From the IMG/VR virus record IMGVR_UViG_2563366870_000005: 41,444 bases of DNA; one strand, written 5' to 3'. The notes beneath the pieces are model-generated. The model was not told where the DNA came from, ran no database searches, and worked only from the letters and a program-made list of their open reading frames with translations. Positions within the stretch are counted from its first letter, which is position 1; the number at the start of each line of letters is the position of its first letter. A program made the translations under genes and the position numbers. This DNA is from a virus (lineage: Duplodnaviria > Heunggongvirae > Uroviricota > Caudoviricetes). This document shows, piece after piece, positions 1 to 24,429 of the stretch.

Positions 1-555
1 TCATTTATCTCCGACCGGAAACCTCTTATACAAAGTCGATATGCCAACATCATAGATGATCGCCACCTTCTGGCGAGGAACTCCTGATGCAATTAATCGT
101 CCGGCCTGTGCCCATTGTTCTGGTGTAAGTTTGGGACGTCGTCCACCAATTCGTCCCTGTGCGCGAGCAGCTTCCAGGCCAGCTTTTGTTCGTTCAACAA
201 TCAGTTCTCGTTCCATTTCAGCCAGGGCACCCATCACATGAAAGAAAAAACGCCCCATCGGTGTGCTGGTATCAATAGCATCCGTCAGGCTGCGAAAATT
301 AACGCCACGTTCGCGCAACTCCTCAACCAGAATGACCAGATGCCGCATACTACGCCCCAGCCGATCCAGCTTCCAGACCACCAGCGTATCACCTGCCGAT
401 AATGTCCTGAGCAGTTTTTTCAGTCCAGGCCTTTCGGACTTTGTACCGCTTATCTTGTCTTCAAAAATCAGCTCGCATCCTGCACAGTTCAGCGCATTAC
501 GTTGTAGATCTGTGTTCTGGTCATTTGTTGACACACGTACATAGCCAATAAGCAT
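1..555 (-). CDS. pin: DNA invertase (Hin/Gin/Pin-family serine recombinase)
   Basis: Translation from ATG 553-555 begins MLIGYVRVSTNDQNTDLQ, the conserved N-terminus and catalytic-Ser region of Gin/Hin/Pin invertases, with a C-terminal HTH; SD GGGGGAG ~6 nt upstream; stop TGA at 1-3. Track ORF 1..591 is an in-frame upstream extension. Confidence 0.9.
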   Translation of the reverse strand: MLIGYVRVSTNDQNTDLQRNALNCAGCELIFEDKISGTKSERPGLKKLLRTLSAGDTLVVWKLDRLGRSMRHLVILVEELRERGVNFRSLTDAIDTSTPMGRFFFHVMGALAEMERELIVERTKAGLEAARAQGRIGGRRPKLTPEQWAQAGRLIASGVPRQKVAIIYDVGISTLYKRFPVGDK

Positions 556-609
556 GGTAGCTCCCCCTGACAAAAGCAGGAATGATGCCATTTGCTCGTT
601 ATTTCTGCA

Positions 610-2519: not shown

Positions 2520-2856
2520 GGTTTTCGAGAGCCGTTTTCACCGTGCCATCCGATTTGATATCGCCAAACGGATTCTTGCGGCTCAGATATTCAACAGCAA
2601 ACCCCGATCCCAGCAATTCAACAAAACCGGGCAGATCACCATTATCAAGCACATCCCGTTGCGTTTTATCACTTACAAACTGGGCCAGAGCTGCAGCAAT
2701 AAAGCTGGCCTGCCGAATAACCTTATTGACTTGCGCACTGGATGCTTTCCCTGCTGTAAATCCGGATAAAAGCGCAGGCAACGCTTCCCATTCCTCCTGC
2801 GACATAACATTGGCATTTTTACCCGTTGCGAATGCTTTAAAGTCATTTTTTGCCAT
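2185..2856 (-). CDS. Tail fibre protein; constant N-terminal part outside and variable C-terminal ~110 aa inside the invertible segment
   Basis: ORF crosses the right crossover site; ATG at 2854-2856 overlaps the upstream stop (TGATG); position immediately after baseplate wedge genes and next to the invertible segment. Confidence 0.55.
   Translation of the reverse strand: MAKNDFKAFATGKNANVMSQEEWEALPALLSGFTAGKASSAQVNKVIRQASFIAAALAQFVSDKTQRDVLDNGDLPGFVELLGSGFAVEYLSRKNPFGDIKSDGTVKTALENLGLGEAAKRNVGTLVRPLAAMPTTASDTGSFMLLLGYIGQYVTVSGYPTRSIGLQAPILFHDRAEFILIVMYDGVLEVPRNPLPEVLSTIFEHASNLAWCTGNSVVAQNSR
2506..2531. other. Inversion crossover site, right (hix/gix-like)
   Basis: TTCTCCCAAACC-AA-GGTTTTCGAGAG: two 12-nt half-sites in inverted orientation (about 9/12 match) around a 2-nt core; resembles hix/gix sites; lies inside the tail-fibre coding sequence. 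Confidence 0.65.
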
Positions 2857-3536
2857 CAGAGTAATACTCCCCATGCCCCTACATCAAAACCACTGATGAA
2901 TTCGTTATCCATATCAAAACCAAAAAATTTTGAACCTTCCGATGGGGTTTCCACCGAAGGTGTTTCAATGCCACCCGCCCACACCCCGGCGGCTTTTACT
3001 GTGAGATATCCCTGTTTAATTGCAGCAATTAACTCACGCGATACATCTGAAATATCAGTATCAGGAAAGACCCAGACCGATATCGTCATGTCCTGGTTAT
3101 CGACAATCTGCATTCGCAGCCCGGAGCCTGCTGTCGCCGCGTCAAGAATTGCTGGAAGAGAATCATTCCGTCCGTCCCAGTTATTAATCGCAATCTTCGC
3201 TTTAAGAATGACACGATAAGTTTCATCGCTGAGATACATGTATCCTGAATCAGGATCGTATGGTCCCTGCCATACACCCTGATCATATCCAAGCCCGTCG
3301 GTATCCCAGCTGAAATAAACACCTGAGATAGGCTGGCTGACAACACGGCTACGCCCGATCCACAATCCCAGAATGTCAAGTTGCACACCAACGGCAGAGT
3401 CAATATCAAATGCAGTAATCAGCCCTCTGGTGGCCACCGCAACATCAATAAGCGGCCGGGTCATCAGATCAACATGTGCAAGAAATTTAGGTTTGGTGGC
3501 GTGGTAGTTCGTGATTAGTTCGGTGTATTTGCTCAT
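2856..3536 (-). CDS. Baseplate wedge/tail protein (P2 gpI / Mu gp48-like position)
   Basis: 226-aa ORF, ATGA start/stop overlap with the upstream J-like gene; position between J-like protein and tail fibre. Confidence 0.55.
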   Translation of the reverse strand: MSKYTELITNYHATKPKFLAHVDLMTRPLIDVAVATRGLITAFDIDSAVGVQLDILGLWIGRSRVVSQPISGVYFSWDTDGLGYDQGVWQGPYDPDSGYMYLSDETYRVILKAKIAINNWDGRNDSLPAILDAATAGSGLRMQIVDNQDMTISVWVFPDTDISDVSRELIAAIKQGYLTVKAAGVWAGGIETPSVETPSEGSKFFGFDMDNEFISGFDVGAWGVLL

Positions 3537-4732
3537 GACTCCACCGTTATAACGATATTTTCTGGGGTACAGGACGCAGATTCGTTGTATCTGATATCAA
3601 TGTTTGATGACGACAAAGCCCCCGGGGATTTCCCAATCGTCAGTTCCTGAATATCGTAATAGCGTGCATTCCCGCCACTCACCACGCCAAGATTCGCCGG
3701 TGAGTAAATGCGACTTAAAAGGACCGAATCACCAATCATCAGACTATTGATATAGTCGGAAATAGCCTGCTGGATCTGCTGCCCTATCTGTGATGTATAA
3801 CCCGTAAAAACTTTTAATTTAATCCGGGCATAAACAGGCACATCACTGGAACGCGAGAATTTGATTACATGGGGATTGCCGTATTTATCCGGAACCGTAA
3901 CAGATGTTGTACCGTGAGTGGCTGTCCCCTGGCCTTTATTCCCTCTGATAGCCTGAGCAATATCCGTCACATCACCGCCATCCACAATTACAGCAACAGA
4001 GTGTGGCGGTAACCCGTTACCGTCCTCCGAACCAGTATCGTTTTCATAGAGTTTGTGGCGGGTTACACCGGCAACATTAGAAACAGCGCCATCCAATGTT
4101 TCAAATGGGGTTATTGATGGCAACGCAACACTTTGCGACTGGCGAATACGTAACTCAGCGTCAGTTTCTGCTGGAGTGCCCACAGTAGCCGCAGCAGGAT
4201 TGGTTACCGAAACCCAGCCACGGGTTGGCGTATTAATTTCAGTGATAGTTCCAGCCAGCGCCGCCACTGCACCACTGACGGAACATGTTGCAGTCACCAT
4301 CACTGTACCATCCACGCCGACCACCACTGAAGCAGGCAAACGCCATATCACATTATTACTGTCTTTCACACTGCCATTAATGATGGTTGTTCCGGCAGTT
4401 CCTGTAAGAAGCAAATCAACCGTAGAATTCGTCGCGCCTTTACGTGAAATACCATTTATTTTCACGTTACTGGTCAGTGCAGCCCCATAGCCGGTTGCCG
4501 GTGAAAAACAGTTGTAGACAGTTATCGCCATATTATTGGCATCATGAATCGCCAGCGCCATCAGAGCCACCATCTGGCCGTCTTTGCTGTCCGGTTCGAG
4601 GTAGGCATCACTGCCATAAATCTGCTGAAAATAGCTAATCAGGGTGCTGAGTATCGTCTGATAATCAGGCGCACTGATCCCCTCCGCGGTTACCTTTGCA
4701 GATAAACCGAGAGAATCAAGGTTCAGAGCCAT
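3533..4732 (-). CDS. Baseplate J-like protein (P2 gpJ / Mu gp47-like)
   Basis: 399-aa ORF translationally coupled to flanking baseplate genes; size and order W-J-I typical of contractile-tail baseplates. Confidence 0.65.
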   Translation of the reverse strand: MALNLDSLGLSAKVTAEGISAPDYQTILSTLISYFQQIYGSDAYLEPDSKDGQMVALMALAIHDANNMAITVYNCFSPATGYGAALTSNVKINGISRKGATNSTVDLLLTGTAGTTIINGSVKDSNNVIWRLPASVVVGVDGTVMVTATCSVSGAVAALAGTITEINTPTRGWVSVTNPAAATVGTPAETDAELRIRQSQSVALPSITPFETLDGAVSNVAGVTRHKLYENDTGSEDGNGLPPHSVAVIVDGGDVTDIAQAIRGNKGQGTATHGTTSVTVPDKYGNPHVIKFSRSSDVPVYARIKLKVFTGYTSQIGQQIQQAISDYINSLMIGDSVLLSRIYSPANLGVVSGGNARYYDIQELTIGKSPGALSSSNIDIRYNESASCTPENIVITVES

Positions 4733-5085
4733 TACGCCTCCGATGTAACAGTCGTTATTCCATAAAGAGTGTCGATTTCAGCGGAAAACATGACACGTCG
4801 GGTCGTGGTATCCACTGTCGTATTGAAAGAGAGGATTGATTTAACGCCCCGCGTTTCGAGGATGCGCTTACGGATCGCCAGGTTGTAGGTTTCCGGCTTC
4901 TGCTTACCGAGCACGGACTGGATCCACGGAGTCCCTTCGGTGGTGTCGAGAAACCATTGCCCATACCACAATTCGAATCGCGTTTTCACAGCCTGTGCTA
5001 CGGCCTCAGGCGAGTTAATCAGCCAGGTGTCATCACCGCTGCCAAAGGTGTAATCGCCATCGGCGTCTTCACGTCTGTATCGCAT
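4732..5085 (-). CDS. Baseplate protein (P2 gpW / gp25-like)
   Basis: 117-aa ORF between spike and J-like genes; stop/start overlaps on both sides. Confidence 0.6.
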   Translation of the reverse strand: MRYRREDADGDYTFGSGDDTWLINSPEAVAQAVKTRFELWYGQWFLDTTEGTPWIQSVLGKQKPETYNLAIRKRILETRGVKSILSFNTTVDTTTRRVMFSAEIDTLYGITTVTSEA

Positions 5086-5837
5086 CAGTTTACCCCATCG
5101 GTATTGCTTCCACCGCGCTGAACACCGCCATGAGTGTGCGTATCATCGATTGGCTTGCCGTTAGCCTTAACGCTCCCCAAGAACTCAACAGCACCAGTGA
5201 TTTTTGAAGCCACACCAGAAACCACAGACCCCACCATGCCCCCCAACCAGGTTAACAGGCCATGAATGGTTACTTTCTCAGAAAAATCAGCCAGAGGGGC
5301 AACCACATCAAGACCACCCGGAGCGACAATTTTAATTTTCCTGGTATCAGGATTAAGCTCAAAATAGGTGCTGCCGTCGTCACTACGCAACTGTGTGGCA
5401 CTGGTATTAATACCGCTAATCTTCCTCGCCTGCGACTGGGGACCGACAATACAAAACGCATCCGATAAATCATGCATTCTGTCATCGACCGGCTCCTGTA
5501 TCCCACCGCTCTGCCACCAGAAATCAATACAACGATCGGCAAAAACGACAAGACACTCATCCCCGGCTTTAACCGGAAAAGTCAACGTACAGCCTCCACC
5601 GCGCGGAAATACCACTGGCACATCCACCAGCAACGGGTAATTTTTGGTAATGCGGTTACCGTCGTTATCCTTTTCAACCGAACGAATAGCTGGCTGCACA
5701 ACCGCCGTCACCGCGTCGGGCTCGAATGACTGAACAATGCCAGGCAAGGCGACACGGATCTGGTTCTTTGTTGTTTCCCGTTCAGATTTGAATGTTTCGG
5801 CAAGGTCGCCGCTGCGGGTCTGGTCAGATACTGCCAT
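5085..5837 (-). CDS. Baseplate spike/assembly protein (P2 gpV / Mu gp45-like)
   Basis: 250-aa ORF with Gly-rich C-terminal region; first gene of the V-W-J-I block. Confidence 0.6.
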   Translation of the reverse strand: MAVSDQTRSGDLAETFKSERETTKNQIRVALPGIVQSFEPDAVTAVVQPAIRSVEKDNDGNRITKNYPLLVDVPVVFPRGGGCTLTFPVKAGDECLVVFADRCIDFWWQSGGIQEPVDDRMHDLSDAFCIVGPQSQARKISGINTSATQLRSDDGSTYFELNPDTRKIKIVAPGGLDVVAPLADFSEKVTIHGLLTWLGGMVGSVVSGVASKITGAVEFLGSVKANGKPIDDTHTHGGVQRGGSNTDGVN

Positions 5838-5854
5838 TTAGTAGGCTCCAGAAA

Positions 5855-5880
5855 GCAAAAAACCCGCCGGGTGGCGGGTT
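5855..5880 (-). terminator. Rho-independent terminator downstream of the moron pair
   Basis: On the minus strand a 7-bp GC-rich stem (ACCCGCC/GGCGGGT, 4-nt loop) is followed by TTTTTT; sits between the stop of the 79-aa gene (5897) and the spike gene start (5837). Confidence 0.7.
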
Positions 5881-5896
5881 CATTATTGAAGTTTCA

Positions 5897-6136
5897 TTAC
5901 TGCTTGTTTGCTTCTAACGCTTCAGCTATTCGGCGAAGATACTCATTGTTTTTAAATGAAACCATGATGCACTCAAAGAATATTCGGCAAAATACAGCAC
6001 ATAACAAAAGCACTAAAGCGCCAGCAGCCTTCCCATTAACAAACGTTATAATGGCGGCAACAACCAGAAGTAACATTGTGATGCCATACAGAACGTTGAT
6101 GATTTTTGGAGTTATTAATTTATCAAATCCGAACAT
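5897..6136 (-). CDS. Small membrane protein (two predicted TM helices), moron
   Basis: 79-aa ORF with two hydrophobic stretches; ATG 6134-6136 with SD AAGGAA; AT-rich compared with flanking tail genes; own candidate promoter and terminator. Confidence 0.6.
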   Translation of the reverse strand: MFGFDKLITPKIINVLYGITMLLLVVAAIITFVNGKAAGALVLLLCAVFCRIFFECIMVSFKNNEYLRRIAEALEANKQ

Positions 6137-6172
6137 GCGACAAATTCCTTATCGTGAAAGTAGAAGTATCAC

Positions 6173-6200
6173 ATTATAATTACGAGTGATTAATCAACAA
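6173..6200 (-). promoter_or_regulatory. Candidate sigma70 promoter for the small membrane-protein gene
   Basis: Minus strand: -35-like TTGTTG (6195-6200), 16-nt spacer, perfect -10 TATAAT (6173-6178), ~40 nt upstream of the ATG at 6136. Confidence 0.4.
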
Positions 6201-6531
6201 TCTTTTTGCATGGAAAGGAACCGATGATTTTCGGCGCATCCATGCTGTTCTGCAGCAGTTGCACATTCAGGAATCGCGTTTCGGTACCAGGGCGACGAAT
6301 GTATTCAAAGCCGTAGTTGTTACCGTCTTTGGCAGGCATAATCCCCATGTCTACTTTCAAACCATTGGTACCCAGTTCGGTGATTTTTTGAGAGGTAACT
6401 CTTTCACCGTTGATTGTCGATAACTCGCCCTGGTTTGCAACCATAGTGTAGCCACCGCATTTAACCGTGAAGCCATCCGCCCACGCGCTGCACGCAGAAA
6501 AGACAGCTAACAGAAAAATGATACCCCTCAT
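6190..6531 (-). CDS. Secreted protein / possible lipoprotein, moron
   Basis: 113-aa ORF with N-terminal signal peptide (MRGIIFLLAVFSACSAWA) containing a lipobox-like FSAC and an AWA cleavage motif; SD AAGGGG; AT-rich; embedded between baseplate genes. Confidence 0.6.
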   Translation of the reverse strand: MRGIIFLLAVFSACSAWADGFTVKCGGYTMVANQGELSTINGERVTSQKITELGTNGLKVDMGIMPAKDGNNYGFEYIRRPGTETRFLNVQLLQNSMDAPKIIGSFPCKKIVD

Positions 6532-6534
6532 TGC

Positions 6535-7596
6535 TCATCCCCTTTGCAAAGCCGATTGCGTATACAGATCCGCCGCGCCACGCGCTTCGCACATCATATC
6601 CATGTACCACGCCTGGCCCCTTGTGTCGCCAGTGTACATAATCCCGCGCACAATATAAACGCCATCCGTTGCGATGCTGGCAGGCTGTGATGTGGTGCCG
6701 CTGAGCGTAATATTTCCGTCCGTGTTCTGGTCGGTGATCTGCCCACCAGCCATAGCGATATCGTTGTTCGACAACGCGGTGCGATATACAGAAGCCTGAT
6801 CCAGTTGAATGAGCCCGTTAACCCGGATGTTCGGATTAATGAGCGCACGGACGTTTACGCCGTTACCGATAGTCTGCTGCGGCATGCCAATAAGCCCGGT
6901 AGCGCTGTTGAGCACAATCGCTTCATGAACATATTCGTTATTCGCCACCATCTGGCGCTGACCGTCCACGAATTGCCATGTTGCGCCACATTGCCCGGCT
7001 ACGTTATCCATTAGATGCCGCGTCATGCCAAAGAGTACCCGCCCCCGGGGGAATACAGTAGCAGGCATTTCAGGCGTCAGGCCTTCGGTCGCGCCTTTGG
7101 CTTCGAAGTCTTTCATCAGCGCACGGTTCACATCAGCGACCGTGTAACCGGCAGCCAGCGTCTGTGAGGTTATACTGGTGGCAAAAGCCAAATCAGTATC
7201 TGCTGCCTGAATCAGGACGTAGGAATCAACCGGACTGTCTTTTCCTGTAACCGAGTAGCGAATTTCACCGCTGAAAATTAGTCCGTAGTTGCGGCCATCA
7301 CTCTGGCCCACGTCCGCCGCATCAACCTCCCGCACGATCCCGACGTCGCTTGCCGACACCTCCGGCGCGATACCGTCGTAACCCGCAATCAGACGCACTT
7401 TCGAAAACTCCTGCCCGGTGATTCGGTTCACAGTATCTGCCGAGAGGTTATAAATTTTGATAGTCCCTACCCGGGACGCACTGCTGATGTTGAACCAGTC
7501 GATCGTAAAGGTGACTTTAAAATCACTTAGCTCAATTCCCTGACCGTTCCCGTCCACAAGCTGCAGCTCGAAATGTCTCATCCAGTTCTGTGACAT
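6535..7596 (-). CDS. Baseplate hub / tail protein (Mu gp44 / P2 gpD-like position)
   Basis: Large ORF after the tape measure block; preferred start ATG 7594-7596 (MSQNWMRH) with GGAG 5 nt upstream and 2 nt after the upstream stop; track start 7629 is TTG. Confidence 0.5.
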   Translation of the reverse strand: MSQNWMRHFELQLVDGNGQGIELSDFKVTFTIDWFNISSASRVGTIKIYNLSADTVNRITGQEFSKVRLIAGYDGIAPEVSASDVGIVREVDAADVGQSDGRNYGLIFSGEIRYSVTGKDSPVDSYVLIQAADTDLAFATSITSQTLAAGYTVADVNRALMKDFEAKGATEGLTPEMPATVFPRGRVLFGMTRHLMDNVAGQCGATWQFVDGQRQMVANNEYVHEAIVLNSATGLIGMPQQTIGNGVNVRALINPNIRVNGLIQLDQASVYRTALSNNDIAMAGGQITDQNTDGNITLSGTTSQPASIATDGVYIVRGIMYTGDTRGQAWYMDMMCEARGAADLYTQSALQRG

Positions 7597-7598
7597 GC

Positions 7599-7901
7599 TT
7601 ACTCCGTTGATACCAGTAAATGGCTGCAACTGCCCAGGTCAGTTTTCGTGGGATAATCCTGTGTGTTGTCATCGCAGACCACCAACAGCTTAAAACCAAG
7701 CCCCATACAGGCGTACTGCGCCAGCAGATCAGCGCCAGTGACGAGAGGAATACCGGAGATTACCGGCTCCCCTCTGTCATTCTGCAGGTCCATAATCCAG
7801 TACAGATCGCGCCATATGATGCTAATCCGCCAGGTGACACCGCCCAGGACGATGCTGAACTGCTGGTTGTCCGCTGTCAGCGGAATTTCCTGAATTGTCA
7901 T
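7599..7901 (-). CDS. Tail protein (small, baseplate-associated)
   Basis: 100-aa ORF, ATG 7899-7901 overlapping the stop of the upstream gene; within the tail operon. Confidence 0.5.
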   Translation of the reverse strand: MTIQEIPLTADNQQFSIVLGGVTWRISIIWRDLYWIMDLQNDRGEPVISGIPLVTGADLLAQYACMGLGFKLLVVCDDNTQDYPTKTDLGSCSHLLVSTE

Positions 7902-8488
7902 TAGCCGCCTCCCAGTAATGACGCCACGTTACCCGTAATGCTTTTCAGCAGTGAAGTATCTGGAGGCTTTGTGGTTTTGTTGCCGCTATTCTGTACCGCC
8001 GACGTGCTGGCCCCTTCCTTCATGTTGGTTTTATCCGCGACGGTAATCTGCTGTGTCCGGGAGATAAGGACCTCCCTCAGGGTAAGGACGGCGGACAGGA
8101 CATTTTCGGTTGTCTTGTCCGTCGTCACTTCCAGCGCCCGGATCAACATGTTGCTGTACAGCCGTTTACCGGTTACCACATCGAAGGGGATACGGCTTTC
8201 CTGCAAATCCAGTAGCTCCTGATACGTCTGCTGAGGACTCAGGCCGAGCAGGCTGGTAGCCGTCAGGTTACTGGCAAAATCCAGCAATGTGCCGCCACCG
8301 GCGAAACCAACCTCCATCACCACTTCTGACGGTTTTTTATAGGCATGATCAGCGACAGCAGCCCCGACCTCTACCGGATGCTCGGTTATTTCAAGCATAT
8401 CTGTATGCTTCTCTGAAATAACAACACTGGGAACAATCATTCCTATTTTTCTGCTCTGCTGATGAAAAAGTGTAGAGAGAATATCCAC
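7901..8488 (-). CDS. Tail protein following the tape measure
   Basis: 195-aa ORF starting with GTG 8486-8488 overlapping the tape-measure stop; function by position only. Confidence 0.45.
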   Translation of the reverse strand: MDILSTLFHQQSRKIGMIVPSVVISEKHTDMLEITEHPVEVGAAVADHAYKKPSEVVMEVGFAGGGTLLDFASNLTATSLLGLSPQQTYQELLDLQESRIPFDVVTGKRLYSNMLIRALEVTTDKTTENVLSAVLTLREVLISRTQQITVADKTNMKEGASTSAVQNSGNKTTKPPDTSLLKSITGNVASLLGGG

Positions 8489-10476
8489 TAACCCACCCTC
8501 ACCTGATTACTTCGCATGACCTGAGCATTTGCAGACTGTTGCCGACGTGCAACCTCATTACCGACAGCGTGCGGATCTCCGCCACCGTAAATGTGGTAGG
8601 TATTTTGCTGGTTAACCTCTGTCATTTTGCCACTAATTCCCGCCACGGCAGCCTTATTAATCAGCTCTCGAGAATAGATATTTCTTCCATTTTCATGCTG
8701 GATAATGCTGCTCATCAATGCTGACATGGTTTTCGGATCGCTCATATTCAGGGCAGCCCGGGGATCCACTCCCAGTCGTTGCGATACAGCCCTGATATAC
8801 GCAGTTGTGTTGTTATTATCAGAGGCAGGTGCCCAGGTAGAGATAATTTTTTCCACACTGTTTATTCCTCGCCCGGCGTACAACATTAACTGACGAGCAA
8901 GAGCCCGTAATCCATCAAAGGCAGTTTCAAATCTGGCAAATCGCCCGCCCGGGTGTTCAAGAGAAGCCCCCGCCTGACCAGCAAAATTAAGGTTTCCCGG
9001 ATTGTTATTCCGTTCTCCTCGTTTCGTAGCCTGTGCATGTTGTTCCGGCTCATCATCACCAAACCAGCCGCGTACCGTCCGGCCCACACTGCGGGGATCG
9101 AATCCCCAGTGCTCTTTAATCCAGTCGGCAGTACTGTTAGCGCTGTCTGTAACCATCGGCATCGCTGACGGATTTTCGCTGCCCTGATTAAGTATCTGTT
9201 TGCCGATGCTGACGGCATCAGCCCAGCGTCCATCTTTGATAGCGTTGAGCAGGTCGGCGATCATGTTCAGCATTTTGCTGAATTCGCCCATCTGGTCGAT
9301 GAAGTTGCTGAAATCCCACTTCAGGGACCATGATTTGGGGTCAATATTGAGTAGTTTCGCCAGCGCTTTCGCCAGATCGTTAACGGTCGTTTTAAGGTCA
9401 CGAACCATCTTCAGCGCGGCATCGACCTCCGGTTTCCACTTGCCCCAGTCAATCAGGCTGTCGCCGCCTTCCTTCCAGGTCTGATAGTCCTCCCACAGGA
9501 GGGCAATCCCCGCCGCCAGCGCGGTAATGAGGCCAACCGGCGACATCCAGAACGTACTGTTCAGAATGCGCAGCGCAATCGTCAGTGCGCCAAACAGCGA
9601 GATCAACTCCCGCGTTTGCTTATCCAGCGATTGCCACCAGGTGATAAGGCCTGATGTCCCCTCAATCAGTCTGAAGAACAGCCGCCCGATAATATCCCCG
9701 AGCGCCAGAATGCCTTTTATGGCTTTCGTCAGAGTCTGCTCGATACGAGGGAAGTTGTCCAGGATATGGCGGCGCAGGGTGTCCAGCGAACCTGCAAGCC
9801 CACCCGCAAGATTAGAGCCGATTTTGTCACGGGCCATGCCTGCCATCGCGCTAAACTCACGCAAGGAGGTCATAAATTTGTTGGAGCTTCTGGCCGCCTC
9901 GTCAGCATTGAAGCCGATAGCTTTCGCCATTGCGCTGTACTGCCCGGAGAAGCCACCCACACCCCGGCGCATCGCCATAAGGGTATTTTCGTCAATGCCC
10001 AGCATCTGCGCATACTGGTTAGCCCGGTAATACGGCATGCTGCTGAGTTTCTGTCCAACGCCCGTAAAGATAGCGGCCATGTCACGCATGTTACCGCTGG
10101 CATCACGGGTCTGTACGCCCAGGCGATTCAGAAATCCCTCCGCCCCGGGATTATTACGAATAAACCGGGAGAGGTTTTCCAGAGAAGATCGCGCAGCGTC
10201 CACGCTGCCGCCAACCTGCGAAACCGCATAGCCAATAGACTGAATTCCCTGGACTGTCGCGCCGGTGCGCTGTGACGCCCAGTAAAGATTATCCAGACCA
10301 GAGGCGATCTTAGCCGTGAAGGCCACCACGGACAGCGCAGCTCCTTCGACGGCCAGCCCCATTTTGATGACATTTGCAGTTGTACCGGCGAGGACAGAAC
10401 CGAATTTTTTCGCTCCTGCATCATCCACACTGAAGCCAAGCGAGACGAGGAAATCTTTAATAGTCTCGGCGTTCAT
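8488..10476 (-). CDS. Tail tape measure protein
   Basis: Largest tail ORF, follows the tube-chaperone-frameshift arrangement; preferred start ATG 10474-10476 (MNAETIKDFL) with strong SD GGAGAGAGG; track start 10497 is TTG. Confidence 0.8.
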   Translation of the reverse strand: MNAETIKDFLVSLGFSVDDAGAKKFGSVLAGTTANVIKMGLAVEGAALSVVAFTAKIASGLDNLYWASQRTGATVQGIQSIGYAVSQVGGSVDAARSSLENLSRFIRNNPGAEGFLNRLGVQTRDASGNMRDMAAIFTGVGQKLSSMPYYRANQYAQMLGIDENTLMAMRRGVGGFSGQYSAMAKAIGFNADEAARSSNKFMTSLREFSAMAGMARDKIGSNLAGGLAGSLDTLRRHILDNFPRIEQTLTKAIKGILALGDIIGRLFFRLIEGTSGLITWWQSLDKQTRELISLFGALTIALRILNSTFWMSPVGLITALAAGIALLWEDYQTWKEGGDSLIDWGKWKPEVDAALKMVRDLKTTVNDLAKALAKLLNIDPKSWSLKWDFSNFIDQMGEFSKMLNMIADLLNAIKDGRWADAVSIGKQILNQGSENPSAMPMVTDSANSTADWIKEHWGFDPRSVGRTVRGWFGDDEPEQHAQATKRGERNNNPGNLNFAGQAGASLEHPGGRFARFETAFDGLRALARQLMLYAGRGINSVEKIISTWAPASDNNNTTAYIRAVSQRLGVDPRAALNMSDPKTMSALMSSIIQHENGRNIYSRELINKAAVAGISGKMTEVNQQNTYHIYGGGDPHAVGNEVARRQQSANAQVMRSNQVRVG

Positions 10477-11106
10477 TATCCTCTCTCCATTTCTCAATGC
10501 GCCGCTGGTTATCCGCTTTTACCGCCAGATGGTCATTCAAGAGAGCAATGTCGTACAAATCGACAGAGCCATCTTTAAGTGCTGTATAAGGAATTAACCC
10601 GGCGTCAACCGGATTGAGAAGGTAGGACAGCCCGTCCGGCAGGCTGTTAAACGTCAGCCCTGTTGCAGGCTCTGCGTCGTGCTGGTAAGGGGTGTAGGCA
10701 AAAAATTTCCCAGCGAATCGGCGACCACCCGCGCCACCAGCTGCAGCATGACCAGCAGGTCAATATCATCAAACATCAGTTCGCCCTGGGTAAATACCGG
10801 CACCCATCCGTCCATATGACGCCGCGATACCACCGCAAGACAGGGATGAATAATCGCATCGGTGTCATCTTCGGTCAGGGAAGACAGTTCCTCAGCGATA
10901 CGCGGGAGCATGGTTTCAAACACCGGTTTTAACTGCTCTAATTTCACGGTGTCGATTTTGCCATCAGCAGGCAAACGGGAGCGAATGCTCCCGAAATCTG
11001 ACATCATTCCTGCCAGCACCGGCAGAAGTTTGCGGGTCACTTTCAGCTGATCAAAAACGCTGAGTTTTGCCGCGCGATATTTCACGCCTTTAATTTCGAA
11101 TTCCAT
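10457..11106 (-). CDS. Tail assembly chaperone, -1 frameshift-extended product (GT / E+E'-like)
   Basis: After slippage at T TTT TTG (10699-10705) the -1 frame stays open for 80 codons, contains no ATG or GTG, and stops at TAA 10457-10459 just inside the tape-measure start. Confidence 0.55.
10654..11106 (-). CDS. Tail assembly chaperone (lambda G / P2 gpE-like)
   Basis: 150-aa ORF between tail tube and tape measure; contains a slippery heptamer near its 3' end, followed by a long -1 open frame. Confidence 0.7.
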   Translation of the reverse strand: MEFEIKGVKYRAAKLSVFDQLKVTRKLLPVLAGMMSDFGSIRSRLPADGKIDTVKLEQLKPVFETMLPRIAEELSSLTEDDTDAIIHPCLAVVSRRHMDGWVPVFTQGELMFDDIDLLVMLQLVARVVADSLGNFLPTPLTSTTQSLQQG

Positions 11107-24006: not shown

Positions 24007-24429
24007 TTATGCCGCCGAGCAGCTCCTACTCAAAGTCCTGATAGCCTGAGGCTTTGACTGAACCGACTGATCCATTTCGAGCACCACATCCAGCATGGCT
24101 AAGCAACCGTCAATAAATCCCTCTGCCGCCTGAAGCCTCTTCAGAACGTGGGTGTGAGATACGCCGAGCTTCTCACCCATCGCCCGCACGGGCATGGCCT
24201 GGACGTAATGCCACTCAAGGAGCGTGCACAGATACGGATCTTTTTTCTTCAGGCAGCTCATAGCGGAGTTGATGATAAGTCCGTCATTGTCACTGCATTT
24301 CAGCCTTCCAGACTGCGTCGCGGGTAGCAGATTCTTAAACCCGGCTGCAACAGGAGGAAAGTAGACGCTACCACCTTCACTCGCTGCCCAGCCACCCCAG
24401 CGCTCTAAAACCTGTTGAATATTACGCAT
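24007..24429 (-). CDS. Q: Late gene antitermination protein Q-like
   Basis: 140-aa ORF upstream of the late promoter/terminator region and lysis cassette; Cys/His-containing C-terminal half typical of Q-family antiterminators. Confidence 0.7.
   Translation of the reverse strand: MRNIQQVLERWGGWAASEGGSVYFPPVAAGFKNLLPATQSGRLKCSDNDGLIINSAMSCLKKKDPYLCTLLEWHYVQAMPVRAMGEKLGVSHTHVLKRLQAAEGFIDGCLAMLDVVLEMDQSVQSKPQAIRTLSRSCSAA

Follow-up and report, generated by a model that had tools for sequence, protein, structure and literature searches.

Two small genes, which we call A and B, separate the baseplate hub gene from the spike gene in an E. coli prophage. The best explanation of the whole arrangement, to which we give a probability of about 0.7, is that they are separate non-structural genes inserted between what would otherwise be neighbouring hub and spike genes, in a minimal, Pam3-type operon of a prophage with Q antitermination. 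Gene A would be translated straight after the hub gene within the late operon and exported by a Sec/SPase-I signal peptide, and recombination would exchange its several alleles, which are deeply diverged. Gene B would be the cargo of a recombination slot, bordered on the left by the conserved 3' end of gene A and on the right by a conserved terminator. In the lysogen, transcription begun in the slot would halt at this terminator, leaving the spike and wedge genes silent; during lytic growth, Q-modified polymerase would pass it. For both proteins we infer a role in the cell envelope, directed against incoming phages.

The window, i.e. the whole stretch of 41,444 nucleotides that was analysed, is a temperate E. 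coli prophage with a contractile-tail operon, of the SEN34-like myophage lineage with a Pam3-type baseplate. A relative 99.9% identical to it is a prophage of E. coli O111:H11. Every sequence feature described in the original prediction was found where it had been placed, on the minus strand, and all features given below lie on that strand unless otherwise indicated. The gene order (Dit-like, plug, hub, A and B, spike, sheath initiator, J, wedge, fibre) parallels gp17-gp24 of Pam3, where spike (gp20) comes right after hub (gp19). The insertion site is flanked on the left by the hub gene (6535-7629; phrog_196 baseplate hub, E 1e-89, with a weak match to PF22759, E217_GP41, in a Pfam scan), and on the right by the spike gene (5085-5837; PF18352, E 7e-44, and the Apex motif). 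The tape measure protein (TMP) gene (8488-10497) encodes a C-terminal muralytic-like domain, which provides context for a hypothesis of exclusion: its last 205 aa match solved structures of an 'Endolysin' (7q47_A, E 2e-13) and of Gp29 (9vvp_L, E 2e-20). A Q-family antiterminator gene is present at 24007-24429 (PF06530, Phage_antitermQ, E 5e-42), and its counterpart in the O111:H11 prophage is annotated as an antiterminator Q family protein.

As had been predicted, the two genes between hub and spike (6190-6531 and 5897-6136) are AT-rich. GC content dips to about 0.39-0.43 over 5851-6450, between flanks at 0.50-0.56, and in relatives the cargo region has a GC content of 0.36-0.46 versus 0.48-0.57 for the hub gene. 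An Rfam scan of 5400-7000 gave no match above threshold, and an antisense ORF overlapping gene B (5871-6179, plus strand, 102 aa) was dismissed for want of support. Our comparisons used 117 related loci of Enterobacterales, many of which, in IMG/VR, are near-identical prophages, so that the counts do not represent independent events; three of the 117 have no gene between hub and spike. The baseplate region occurs in 353 of 5,426 complete E. coli genomes (about 6%), and the cassette carrying gene B in 83.

Gene A, a predicted exported protein

Gene A (6190-6531, 113 aa) starts 3 nt past the stop codon of the hub gene and belongs to the uncharacterised family phrog_3443. The N-terminus of its product reads MRGIIFLLAVFSACSAWA, with DG following the vertical mark. 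Residues 1-18 (6478-6531) are a putative signal peptide, with a predicted SPase-I cut after AWA. All 29 aligned homologues have the n-h-c pattern, i.e. a basic N-terminus and a hydrophobic core, in a sequence that is otherwise variable, and the Ala at -1 of the AxA-type site is at least 90% conserved. Such a pattern, kept in the alignment despite sequence drift, is that of a Sec/SPase-I signal peptide, and the segment has low pLDDT in the AlphaFold2 model. The alignment thus predicts that gene A is exported via a conserved SPase-I signal peptide. This bears out half of the original description of a signal-peptide and lipobox protein. The lipobox half fails: the motif L-[AS]-[GA]-C with an invariant +1 Cys is not conserved in the family, Cys14 (in FSAC) being present in the window-type allele only and missing from most homologues. 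The lipoprotein reading was rejected because Cys14 is not conserved.

The invariant cysteines, C25 and C108, are both in the mature part. AlphaFold2 models the protein as an 8-stranded beta-barrel (pLDDT 79.5), and the mature protein most likely folds in the periplasm as such a barrel, closed by a disulfide bond. The fold match is generic. Searches of Pfam, NCBIfam and PADLOC gave no match to gene A, and the protein shows neither a match to the Pfam MliC family nor the conserved motifs of the PliC/MliC lysozyme inhibitors. A profile search of 1.84 billion representatives retrieved 69 clusters only, none of which ties the protein to a family already known; three of the matches, long repeat proteins, look like spurious hits to beta-hairpins. 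The family counts 763 sequences at 90% clustering, all from Enterobacterales.

Gene A follows the hub gene directly in 104 of the 117 loci, across Enterobacterales, and is absent or replaced in the other 13. It is the sole gene between hub and spike in seven loci, and in six the gap between gene A and spike is 0-3 nt. In every context examined, the family was met only beside this baseplate hub. Gene A is under purifying selection (median dN/dS of 0.056), and its distribution identifies it as what appears to be a long-standing, lineage-wide resident of the hub-spike junction. It is also allelic. In a set of 80 relatives whose hubs are at least 96% identical, gene A forms 6 clusters at 90% identity versus 1-2 each for TMP, Dit, plug, hub and gpW. 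There are hence at least 6 alleles, which reassort independently of their neighbours. In the same 80 relatives we found no association between these alleles and the TMP segments, the N- or C-terminal parts of the spike, J, wedge or fibre (AMI at most 0.1), and the lack of co-variation with the TMP C-terminal domain, the spike tip and the fibre counts against our main reading. Among 50 more distant loci, the cross-tabulation of gene A subfamily and TMP C-terminal variant put 18 and 13 loci on the diagonal and 5 off it, a result confounded by phylogeny; the "SLT-type" TMP query used there contains the same NNPGN domain as the TMP of the window. Gene A is a widespread secreted prophage protein, and its allele pattern suggests an ongoing conflict.

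Gene B and the cargo slot

Gene B (5897-6136, 79 aa) is preceded by a Shine-Dalgarno-like AAGGA (6146-6150), read from the sequence, 9 nt 5' of the start codon. The prediction of a membrane protein with two transmembrane segments was upheld. The product matches PF14110 (DUF4282) with 42.2 bits for a cut-off of 27 (E 1.2e-10, profile positions 2-85 of 86) and is also assigned to phrog_12129; all 87 homologues carry PF14110. The AlphaFold2 model is a two-helix hairpin (residues 10-33 and 37-78, pLDDT 87.7), presumably of the inner membrane. Conservation is concentrated in the N-terminus and in the segment R51-E55...KNNEYLRRI. A fold search in a viral structure library returned unnamed helical hairpins only, and the Pfam scan gave DUF4282 and a sub-threshold YbhQ, with no assignment to the families of HK97 gp15/YebO or T4 Imm. 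Neither gene A nor gene B matches any PADLOC defence model, and our literature search found no paper mentioning DUF4282, STY1065 or STY2022.

Gene B is present in 15 of the 117 loci, and in one Pectobacterium locus, and is lacking from the other 102. A DUF4282 cassette 99.4% identical to that of the window occurs in a divergent backbone whose hub is 48% identical, where it is accompanied by 85 nt left over from the 3' end of gene A. The cassette is therefore mobile. In unrelated prophages, DUF4282 homologues adjoin genes of the injection machinery, being directly 3' of TMP in Klebsiella prophages and in Edwardsiella phage GF-2. This placement is suggestive as to function. One homologue sits after a lysis cassette and not by tail genes, which we count against our main reading.

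The right border of the slot is an intrinsic terminator (5851-5881), in which the hairpin AACCCGCC-ACCC-GGCGGGTT (5860-5881) is followed by a T-run. The stem counts 9 pairs, of which 6 are G-C, the loop has 4 nt, and the centroid hairpin comes to -16 kcal/mol. Of all terminator-like sites in 20 kb this one ranks first, in agreement with the strong terminator predicted after the second gene. Its ownership is another matter. Of 59 distinct junction sequences, 57 have the terminator regardless of cargo, and the segment 5838-5880 is kept in E. coli prophages carrying other cargo. Between cargo types, homology ends in the last codons of gene A and resumes exactly at the terminator stem. Since nearly all cargo types have this terminator in common, it belongs to the slot and not to the cassette of gene B; it does follow gene B, as predicted, but as a conserved border and not as the cassette's own.

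The slot can be empty, and across the 117 loci its cargo amounts to about 50 ORF families, most of it oriented like the late operon. Among them are a YafO toxin, DUF2335, Mrr-like, ClpP-like and PDC-S02-like proteins, and PD-Lambda-1 (E 3e-82). Gene B is thus one of about 50 interchangeable cargoes of a slot that runs from the 3' end of gene A to the terminator. The arrangement is of a known kind, that of morons and prophage hotspots. Judged by the definition of morons (Juhala et al. 2000, as summarised in PMC3594210), gene B is extra DNA between genes adjacent in relatives, has a divergent base composition and is directly followed by a hairpin and T-run, though this terminator is owned by the slot. 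The site also has what marks a prophage hotspot of defence and accessory genes: conserved flanks and many unrelated cargoes, known defence genes among them. The hub-spike junction is hence a precisely bounded exchange site within an essential operon and a practical hunting ground for envelope-level anti-phage genes, in which most cargo families are unannotated and one is the validated PD-Lambda-1.

The ribosome-binding site of the spike gene (GGAG, 5846-5849) lies a few bases 3' of the terminator, and the distance between the hairpin and the spike ATG is only 43 nt, which leaves no space for a promoter. The Q antiterminator of the prophage would explain read-through to this essential gene. The site thus provides a clean natural test of whether Q antitermination permits terminator-bounded cargo in late operons.

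Expression and alternative explanations

The original prediction placed a near-consensus promoter in front of the second gene. A sigma-70-like candidate is found there (6173-6200), made of a -35 TTGTTG (6195-6200) that falls within the final codons of gene A, a spacer of 16 nt and a perfect -10 TATAAT (6173-6178). Yet "near-consensus" overstates it: the -35 agrees with TTGACA at 3 of 6 positions, which left the candidate unlisted by a consensus scan, and its score of 9 out of 12 is equalled by 14% of composition-matched shuffles of the local 88-nt segment. By chance, 0.28 matches to TTG-N19-TATAAT are expected in the window, and 22% of shuffles have at least one. The match might then be due to chance and gene B silent in the prophage, in which case it would be an extra gene of the late operon acting, e.g., in secondary-infection exclusion or in pre-lysis membrane modulation. 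We hold this to be a minority possibility. Besides the weak -35 and the shuffles of the cassette, it agrees with the 5' ends of 16 cargo types, at which promoter scores are not above those of shuffles (7.75 vs 7.28 of 12), with the orientation of gene B, which like most cargo follows that of the late operon, and with Q read-through, which gives late expression anyway. It also counts against our main reading that a well-spaced -35 was not found in a Pectobacterium orthologue of the cassette. A chance match is harder to reconcile with the position of the TATAAT, 16 nt from the TTGTTG and about 30 nt 5' of a good ribosome-binding site, and with the uniqueness of the motif: TTG-N19-TATAAT has a single match in the 41-kb window. 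Moreover, a terminator after the cargo slot alone is hard to explain without transcription to stop there, and the candidate accompanies the DUF4282 cassette where this has joined other gene A alleles or another backbone, the transferred cassette having retained the segment that bears the -35.

An alternative, in line with the original prediction, is that A and B make up one two-gene moron, acquired and expressed jointly as a lysogenic-conversion unit. Both genes are richer in AT than what surrounds them and encode envelope proteins, the flanking genes are neighbours in Pam3 and in three related loci, and the order of gene A then DUF4282 is also that of a Pectobacterium prophage. But gene A is far more widespread than gene B (104 versus 15 of the 117 loci), and the two recombine separately: loci L121 and L125 have gene B at 100% identity paired with gene A alleles that are 62-64% identical. 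The candidate promoter is 3' and not 5' of gene A, upstream of which the promoter scan found no promoter-like site, and the terminator is common to all cargo types. The comparative data thus largely refute the joint unit, which we regard as very unlikely, and what stands of it is gene B as an exchangeable cargo, the moron proper. Core conservation of both genes as baseplate components had been named as what would overturn the prediction; gene A is conserved though non-structural, and gene B is not conserved. That gene A might nevertheless be part of the virion or assist in assembling the hub-spike complex is what its fixed position, its tight coupling to the hub gene, its presence in nearly all relatives and its purifying selection would lead one to expect. 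We find this highly improbable. Gene A has a cleavable signal peptide of variable sequence and an invariant cysteine pair typical of a periplasmic disulfide. It has neither a solved counterpart nor the indispensability of a structural component, as the solved Pam3 baseplate is fully accounted for by gp17-gp24, three loci have nothing at the site, and in nine an unrelated exported protein takes its place. Its six alleles are below 90% identity, whereas the true structural neighbours are all above 90%, and one Serratia prophage has seven paralogues in tandem. We rejected a structural role on account of the signal peptide, the comparison with Pam3 and the loci without gene A. Gene A might otherwise benefit the host, as a periplasmic immunity-type or binding protein, e.g. 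against cell-wall-targeting toxins of competitors, and so be a lysogenic-conversion factor. This too is improbable: the fold match is generic, the family keeps to this baseplate hub in all contexts examined, and a promoter of its own for expression in the lysogen was not found.

Relation to known exclusion systems and hotspots

With two separate genes at the junction as the preferred reading, the closest parallel to gene B is the HK97 gene 15 moron, reportedly the work of Juhala and Hendrix and, in 2012, of Cumby and co-workers. Both encode small inner-membrane proteins from within the tail operons of temperate coliphages that use Q-type late transcription, and both diverge from their neighbours in base composition. 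HK97 gp15 was the first moron described, an inner-membrane exclusion protein that blocks DNA entry depending on the tail of the incoming phage (PMC3594210). Yet the two have no sequence relationship, gene B being DUF4282 and not YebO-like. The HK97 gene lies between chaperone and TMP and not between hub and spike, and the terminator here is a fixed slot border serving many cargoes. Gene B resembles HK97 gp15/YebO and T4 Imm in size, topology and genomic setting only. By this analogy it might act at the inner membrane as they do, which we consider possible but short of an even chance.

The slot itself recalls the hotspots of antiviral systems in P2 and P4 prophages (Rousset et al. 2022, PMC9122126), in that conserved flanks surround variable AT-rich cargo, including PD-Lambda-1, the YafO toxin and an Mrr-like nuclease. 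It differs from them in its carriers, which are SEN34-like myophages with a Pam3-type baseplate, in its position in the middle of an essential baseplate operon and not at the edge of a module, and in its borders, a secreted-protein gene and a terminator.

In T4, Spackle blocks the tail lysozyme and Imm blocks DNA entry. The parallel with genes A and B lies in the pairing of a small periplasmic protein with a signal peptide and a small two-helix inner-membrane protein, and the TMP of the window carries an endolysin-like domain. Nevertheless, no sequence similarity to genes A and B was detected, Spackle is helical whereas gene A is predicted to be a beta-barrel, the T4 genes are early genes outside the tail cluster, and the alleles of gene A do not follow the muralytic domain of TMP. 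The periplasmic peptidoglycan-hydrolase inhibitors PliC/MliC and PhiA also count among the closest known systems. That gene A acts as a periplasmic blocker is a tentative proposal, to which we give somewhat less credit than to the role of gene B at the inner membrane.

One might speculate further, with less confidence still, that gene A founds a new family of periplasmic beta-barrel "entry-immunity" proteins, wired into the baseplate operon beside hub and spike. Each allele would then neutralise a particular periplasmic activity delivered by the tails of incoming relatives, such as the TMP muralytic domain or the spike tip. If so, the multi-allelic pattern and the seven-copy Serratia array would be a repertoire of specificities, and slot and terminator a dedicated landing pad for further defences. 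The position of gene A beside hub and spike would then be likened to that of type VI secretion immunity genes beside vgrG.

Gene order and prophage setting

All genes of this region lie on the minus strand, in the order tape measure protein (TMP, 8488-10497), Dit-like tube initiator (7901-8488, PF21821), plug (7599-7901, PF22479 Pam3_gp18), hub (6535-7629, phrog_196), gene A (6190-6531, an exported protein of 113 aa), gene B (5897-6136, a DUF4282 protein of 79 aa) and, past a hairpin terminator (5860-5881), spike (5085-5837, PF18352 plus Apex), a sheath-initiator-like gene (4732-5085), baseplate J (3533-4732) and wedge (2856-3536, DUF2612). In their order the baseplate genes follow those of cyanophage Pam3, whose solved baseplate consists of gp17-gp24 with hub gp19 adjoining spike gp20 (PMC9942802). 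Since hub and spike are neighbours there, genes A and B have been added to a structural set that is complete without them. In a Pam3-type structure, the spike and every baseplate gene downstream of it encode essential parts (PMC9942802). The original prediction of two small AT-rich genes between hub and spike, followed by a strong terminator, describes the locus correctly: GC drops to 0.39-0.43 in the two genes, compared with 0.50-0.56 in their surroundings, and the hairpin, the top-scoring terminator-like site of the first 20 kb, folds at about -16 kcal/mol.

A prophage 99.9% identical to the window is found in E. coli O111:H11 strain 8D, integrated between yfhL and yfhH. It encodes an integrase, a LexA-like repressor, a family-A DNA polymerase, a contractile tail and a lambda-type holin and lysis cassette, and a Q-family antiterminator is encoded at window 24007-24429 (PF06530, E 5e-42). 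Among its isolated relatives are Yersinia phage YP3, Salmonella phage SEN34 and several induced E. coli phages such as vB_EcoM-689R2. At the edge of the window, a resolvase/invertase gene (1-591, minus strand; PF00239, E 1e-51), annotated as partial in its strain 8D counterpart, lies next to oppositely oriented tail-fibre and fibre-assembly genes (1415-2874), which points to an invertible segment for host range, of the Gin/Cin type.

An exported protein behind the hub

We gathered 45 related loci from bacterial genomes, one per species, and 80 from IMG/VR, and found both hub and spike in 117 of them; many IMG/VR loci are near-duplicates, so these counts overstate the number of independent events. 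A gene A homologue stands directly behind the hub in 104 of the 117, which is hard to reconcile with gene A being half of a two-gene moron. In six loci the gap between gene A and spike is 0-3 nt, and in a seventh the terminator alone separates them. Where gene A is missing, another exported protein comes first in nine loci (lipoprotein family F9 or secreted family F11), and hub and spike are adjacent in three. The position after the hub seems reserved for envelope proteins. Such substitutes occur in loci L147 (3001-3879), L023, L113, L116, L118, L093, L110, L130 and L012; the secreted family has 158 aa, and the lipoprotein family has longer members (P0341, P0352) with a gene A-like domain at their end.

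Gene A belongs to phrog_3443, a family without assigned function, and had no match in Pfam, NCBIfam, PADLOC or PDB. The family, apparently Enterobacterales throughout, comprises 763 sequences when clustered at 90% and 69 clusters at 50%, and was behind this hub type in every case examined. All homologues start with a signal peptide of variable sequence in which Ala at -1 is nearly invariant. The apparent lipobox FSAC, which would make gene A a lipoprotein, was rejected since its Cys14 is not conserved among homologues; the invariant cysteines are C25 and C108, both in the mature part. In the AlphaFold2 model, an eight-stranded up-and-down beta-barrel (mean pLDDT 79.5), these lie in the first and last strands, which would be expected to close the barrel, making a C25-C108 disulfide plausible.

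Is gene A then a part of the baseplate? Among 80 close relatives (hub identity ≥96%), it falls into six clusters at 90% identity, whereas TMP, Dit, plug, hub and sheath initiator each give no more than two; only the spike C-terminus and the fibre are as variable. Gene A alleles showed no association with the alleles of any neighbour in these relatives (AMI ≤0.1). Inside allele lineages, purifying selection acts on gene A much as on the hub (median dN/dS 0.056). In a Serratia aquatilis prophage (CP173186; L034, 7119-12007) seven tandem paralogues separate hub from spike. Six are full length and one is truncated, all have the signal peptide and conserved cysteines, and an IS transposase is inserted among them. 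Judged from sequence, gene A is an accessory protein that is real, functional and exported, and it stays in place yet is swapped as alleles, the pattern expected of a gene in conflict, not of a structural part.

A cargo slot and its borders

The interval from the 3' end of gene A to the terminator before spike, hereafter the slot, behaves differently. Between gene A and spike there are 50 ORF families in 41 architectures, called mechanically, so that in two cases (families F10 and F26) an antisense ORF was chosen over DUF4282. In the window, too, an ORF of 102 aa (5871-6179, plus strand) lies opposite gene B; it lacks homology or context support and is probably a by-product of AT-rich sequence. 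The commonest cargo is an unannotated pair, F2 and F1 (31 loci, L062-L092 and others); then come DUF4282 (15 loci) and a YafO-toxin pair (at least nine). F2 and F1, the most frequent cargo among E. coli relatives, have about 266 and about 150 aa, matched nothing in Pfam or PADLOC and are a candidate two-gene system. Further cargo includes DUF2335, an Mrr-like nuclease, a ClpP-like protein and a tRNA_anti-like secreted protein. In Pantoea dispersa (L027, about 2830-4060), a 409-aa T5orf172 protein matches PD-Lambda-1, a validated defence system (E 3e-82). Cargo DNA is AT-rich throughout.

Gene B, which matches DUF4282 above the Pfam threshold, occurs in 15 of the 117 loci and at the same site of a Pectobacterium prophage (67% identity). 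This distribution marks gene B as exchangeable cargo, and the moron reading holds for it while failing for gene A. The slot has sharp borders. On the right, alignment of all cargo types begins exactly at the terminator stem, AACCCGCC...GGCGGGTTTTTT, and takes in the ribosome-binding site of spike. The hairpin had been assigned to the A and B pair itself; it is instead common to 57 of 59 distinct junction sequences, across genera and whatever the cargo, is retained in the cargo-free locus L046, and is missing only from two junctions that end in an opposite-strand gene. On the left, homology is lost within the final few codons of gene A. The DUF4282 cassette also occurs behind gene A alleles with 62-64% identity (L121, L125) and, in E. 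coli CFS3292 and EC20017429, in a backbone with a hub of only 48% identity. In these two loci (L142, 3847-3931; L143), 85 nt from the 3' end of a window-type gene A came along as a remnant, which separates a divergent full-length gene A from the DUF4282 cassette and looks like a recombination scar of the move. Elsewhere, DUF4282 homologues directly follow TMP in Klebsiella prophages and Edwardsiella phage GF-2, and one follows a lysis cassette in Pantoea. The GF-2 arrangement (L051, 4001-6316), TMP, DUF4282 and then an Arc/Ant immunity-type insertion within the tail module, is another accessory island among tail genes.

For gene B a candidate promoter, TTGTTG-16-TATAAT, is indeed present at 6173-6200. 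Its -35 overlaps the closing codons of gene A, the -10 is about 37 nt upstream of the gene B start codon, and an AAGGA ribosome-binding site comes between -10 and start. The codons bearing TTGTTG, which the remnant includes, are part of the DUF4282 cassette. The TTG/TATAAT pattern is unique in the window (chance expectation 0.28). Calling it near-consensus is nevertheless too generous: the -35 matches three of six consensus positions, 14% of local shuffles score as high, and a promoter scan by consensus did not list it.

Possible functions and related systems

The terminator lies 43 nt before the spike start, too short a distance for an intervening promoter. In the repressed prophage, transcription from the slot would stop at the hairpin and leave the tail genes silent, which would allow foreign cassettes to be tolerated amid an essential operon; in late transcription, a Q-modified polymerase would read through. 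The conserved gene A 3' end and the terminator-spike junction could serve as homology arms for cassette exchange. The logic is that of the classic moron (PMC3594210), with the refinement that the terminator is a property of the site, not of individual cargo.

What might the two proteins do? Gene B is predicted to fold into a helical hairpin whose turn has three residues and whose C-terminal helix is long. Conservation is highest in its N-terminal MFGFDKLITPKII, at R51 and E55 of the second helix and in the KNNEYLRRI segment, with variable membrane cores and turn; by the positive-inside rule, we infer that the conserved surfaces face the cytoplasm. Its likeliest role, put forward tentatively, may be interference at the inner membrane with genome entry of incoming phages, given its size, its topology, the HK97 gp15 precedent, the defence-type company in the slot and its recurrence next to TMP, hub and spike genes of unrelated prophages. 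For gene A the best guess, a rather doubtful one, is a periplasmic blocker of an entry step. The C-terminal ~200 residues of TMP (NNNPGN motif; 8488-9100, minus strand), not recognised by a Pfam scan, match the solved endolysin 7q47_A (E 2e-13) and Gp29 9vvp_L (E 2e-20), and with such matches the tail probably has its own cell-wall-degrading domain. This domain would be an obvious target for gene A, and remains a lead only, because gene A alleles do not track it.

Our literature search found no paper naming DUF4282, STY1065 or STY2022, and to our knowledge a moron hotspot at the hub-spike junction has no earlier description. Tested by sequence, neither protein belongs to the families of HK97 gp15, T4 Spackle and Imm or the PliC/MliC inhibitors; likeness to Spackle, Imm and PliC/MliC is one of functional analogy only. 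The closest systems are the HK97 gene 15 moron and the prophage defence hotspots of the P2/P4 type, and the arrangement described here is a moron hotspot beside an uncharacterised, lineage-wide secreted protein.
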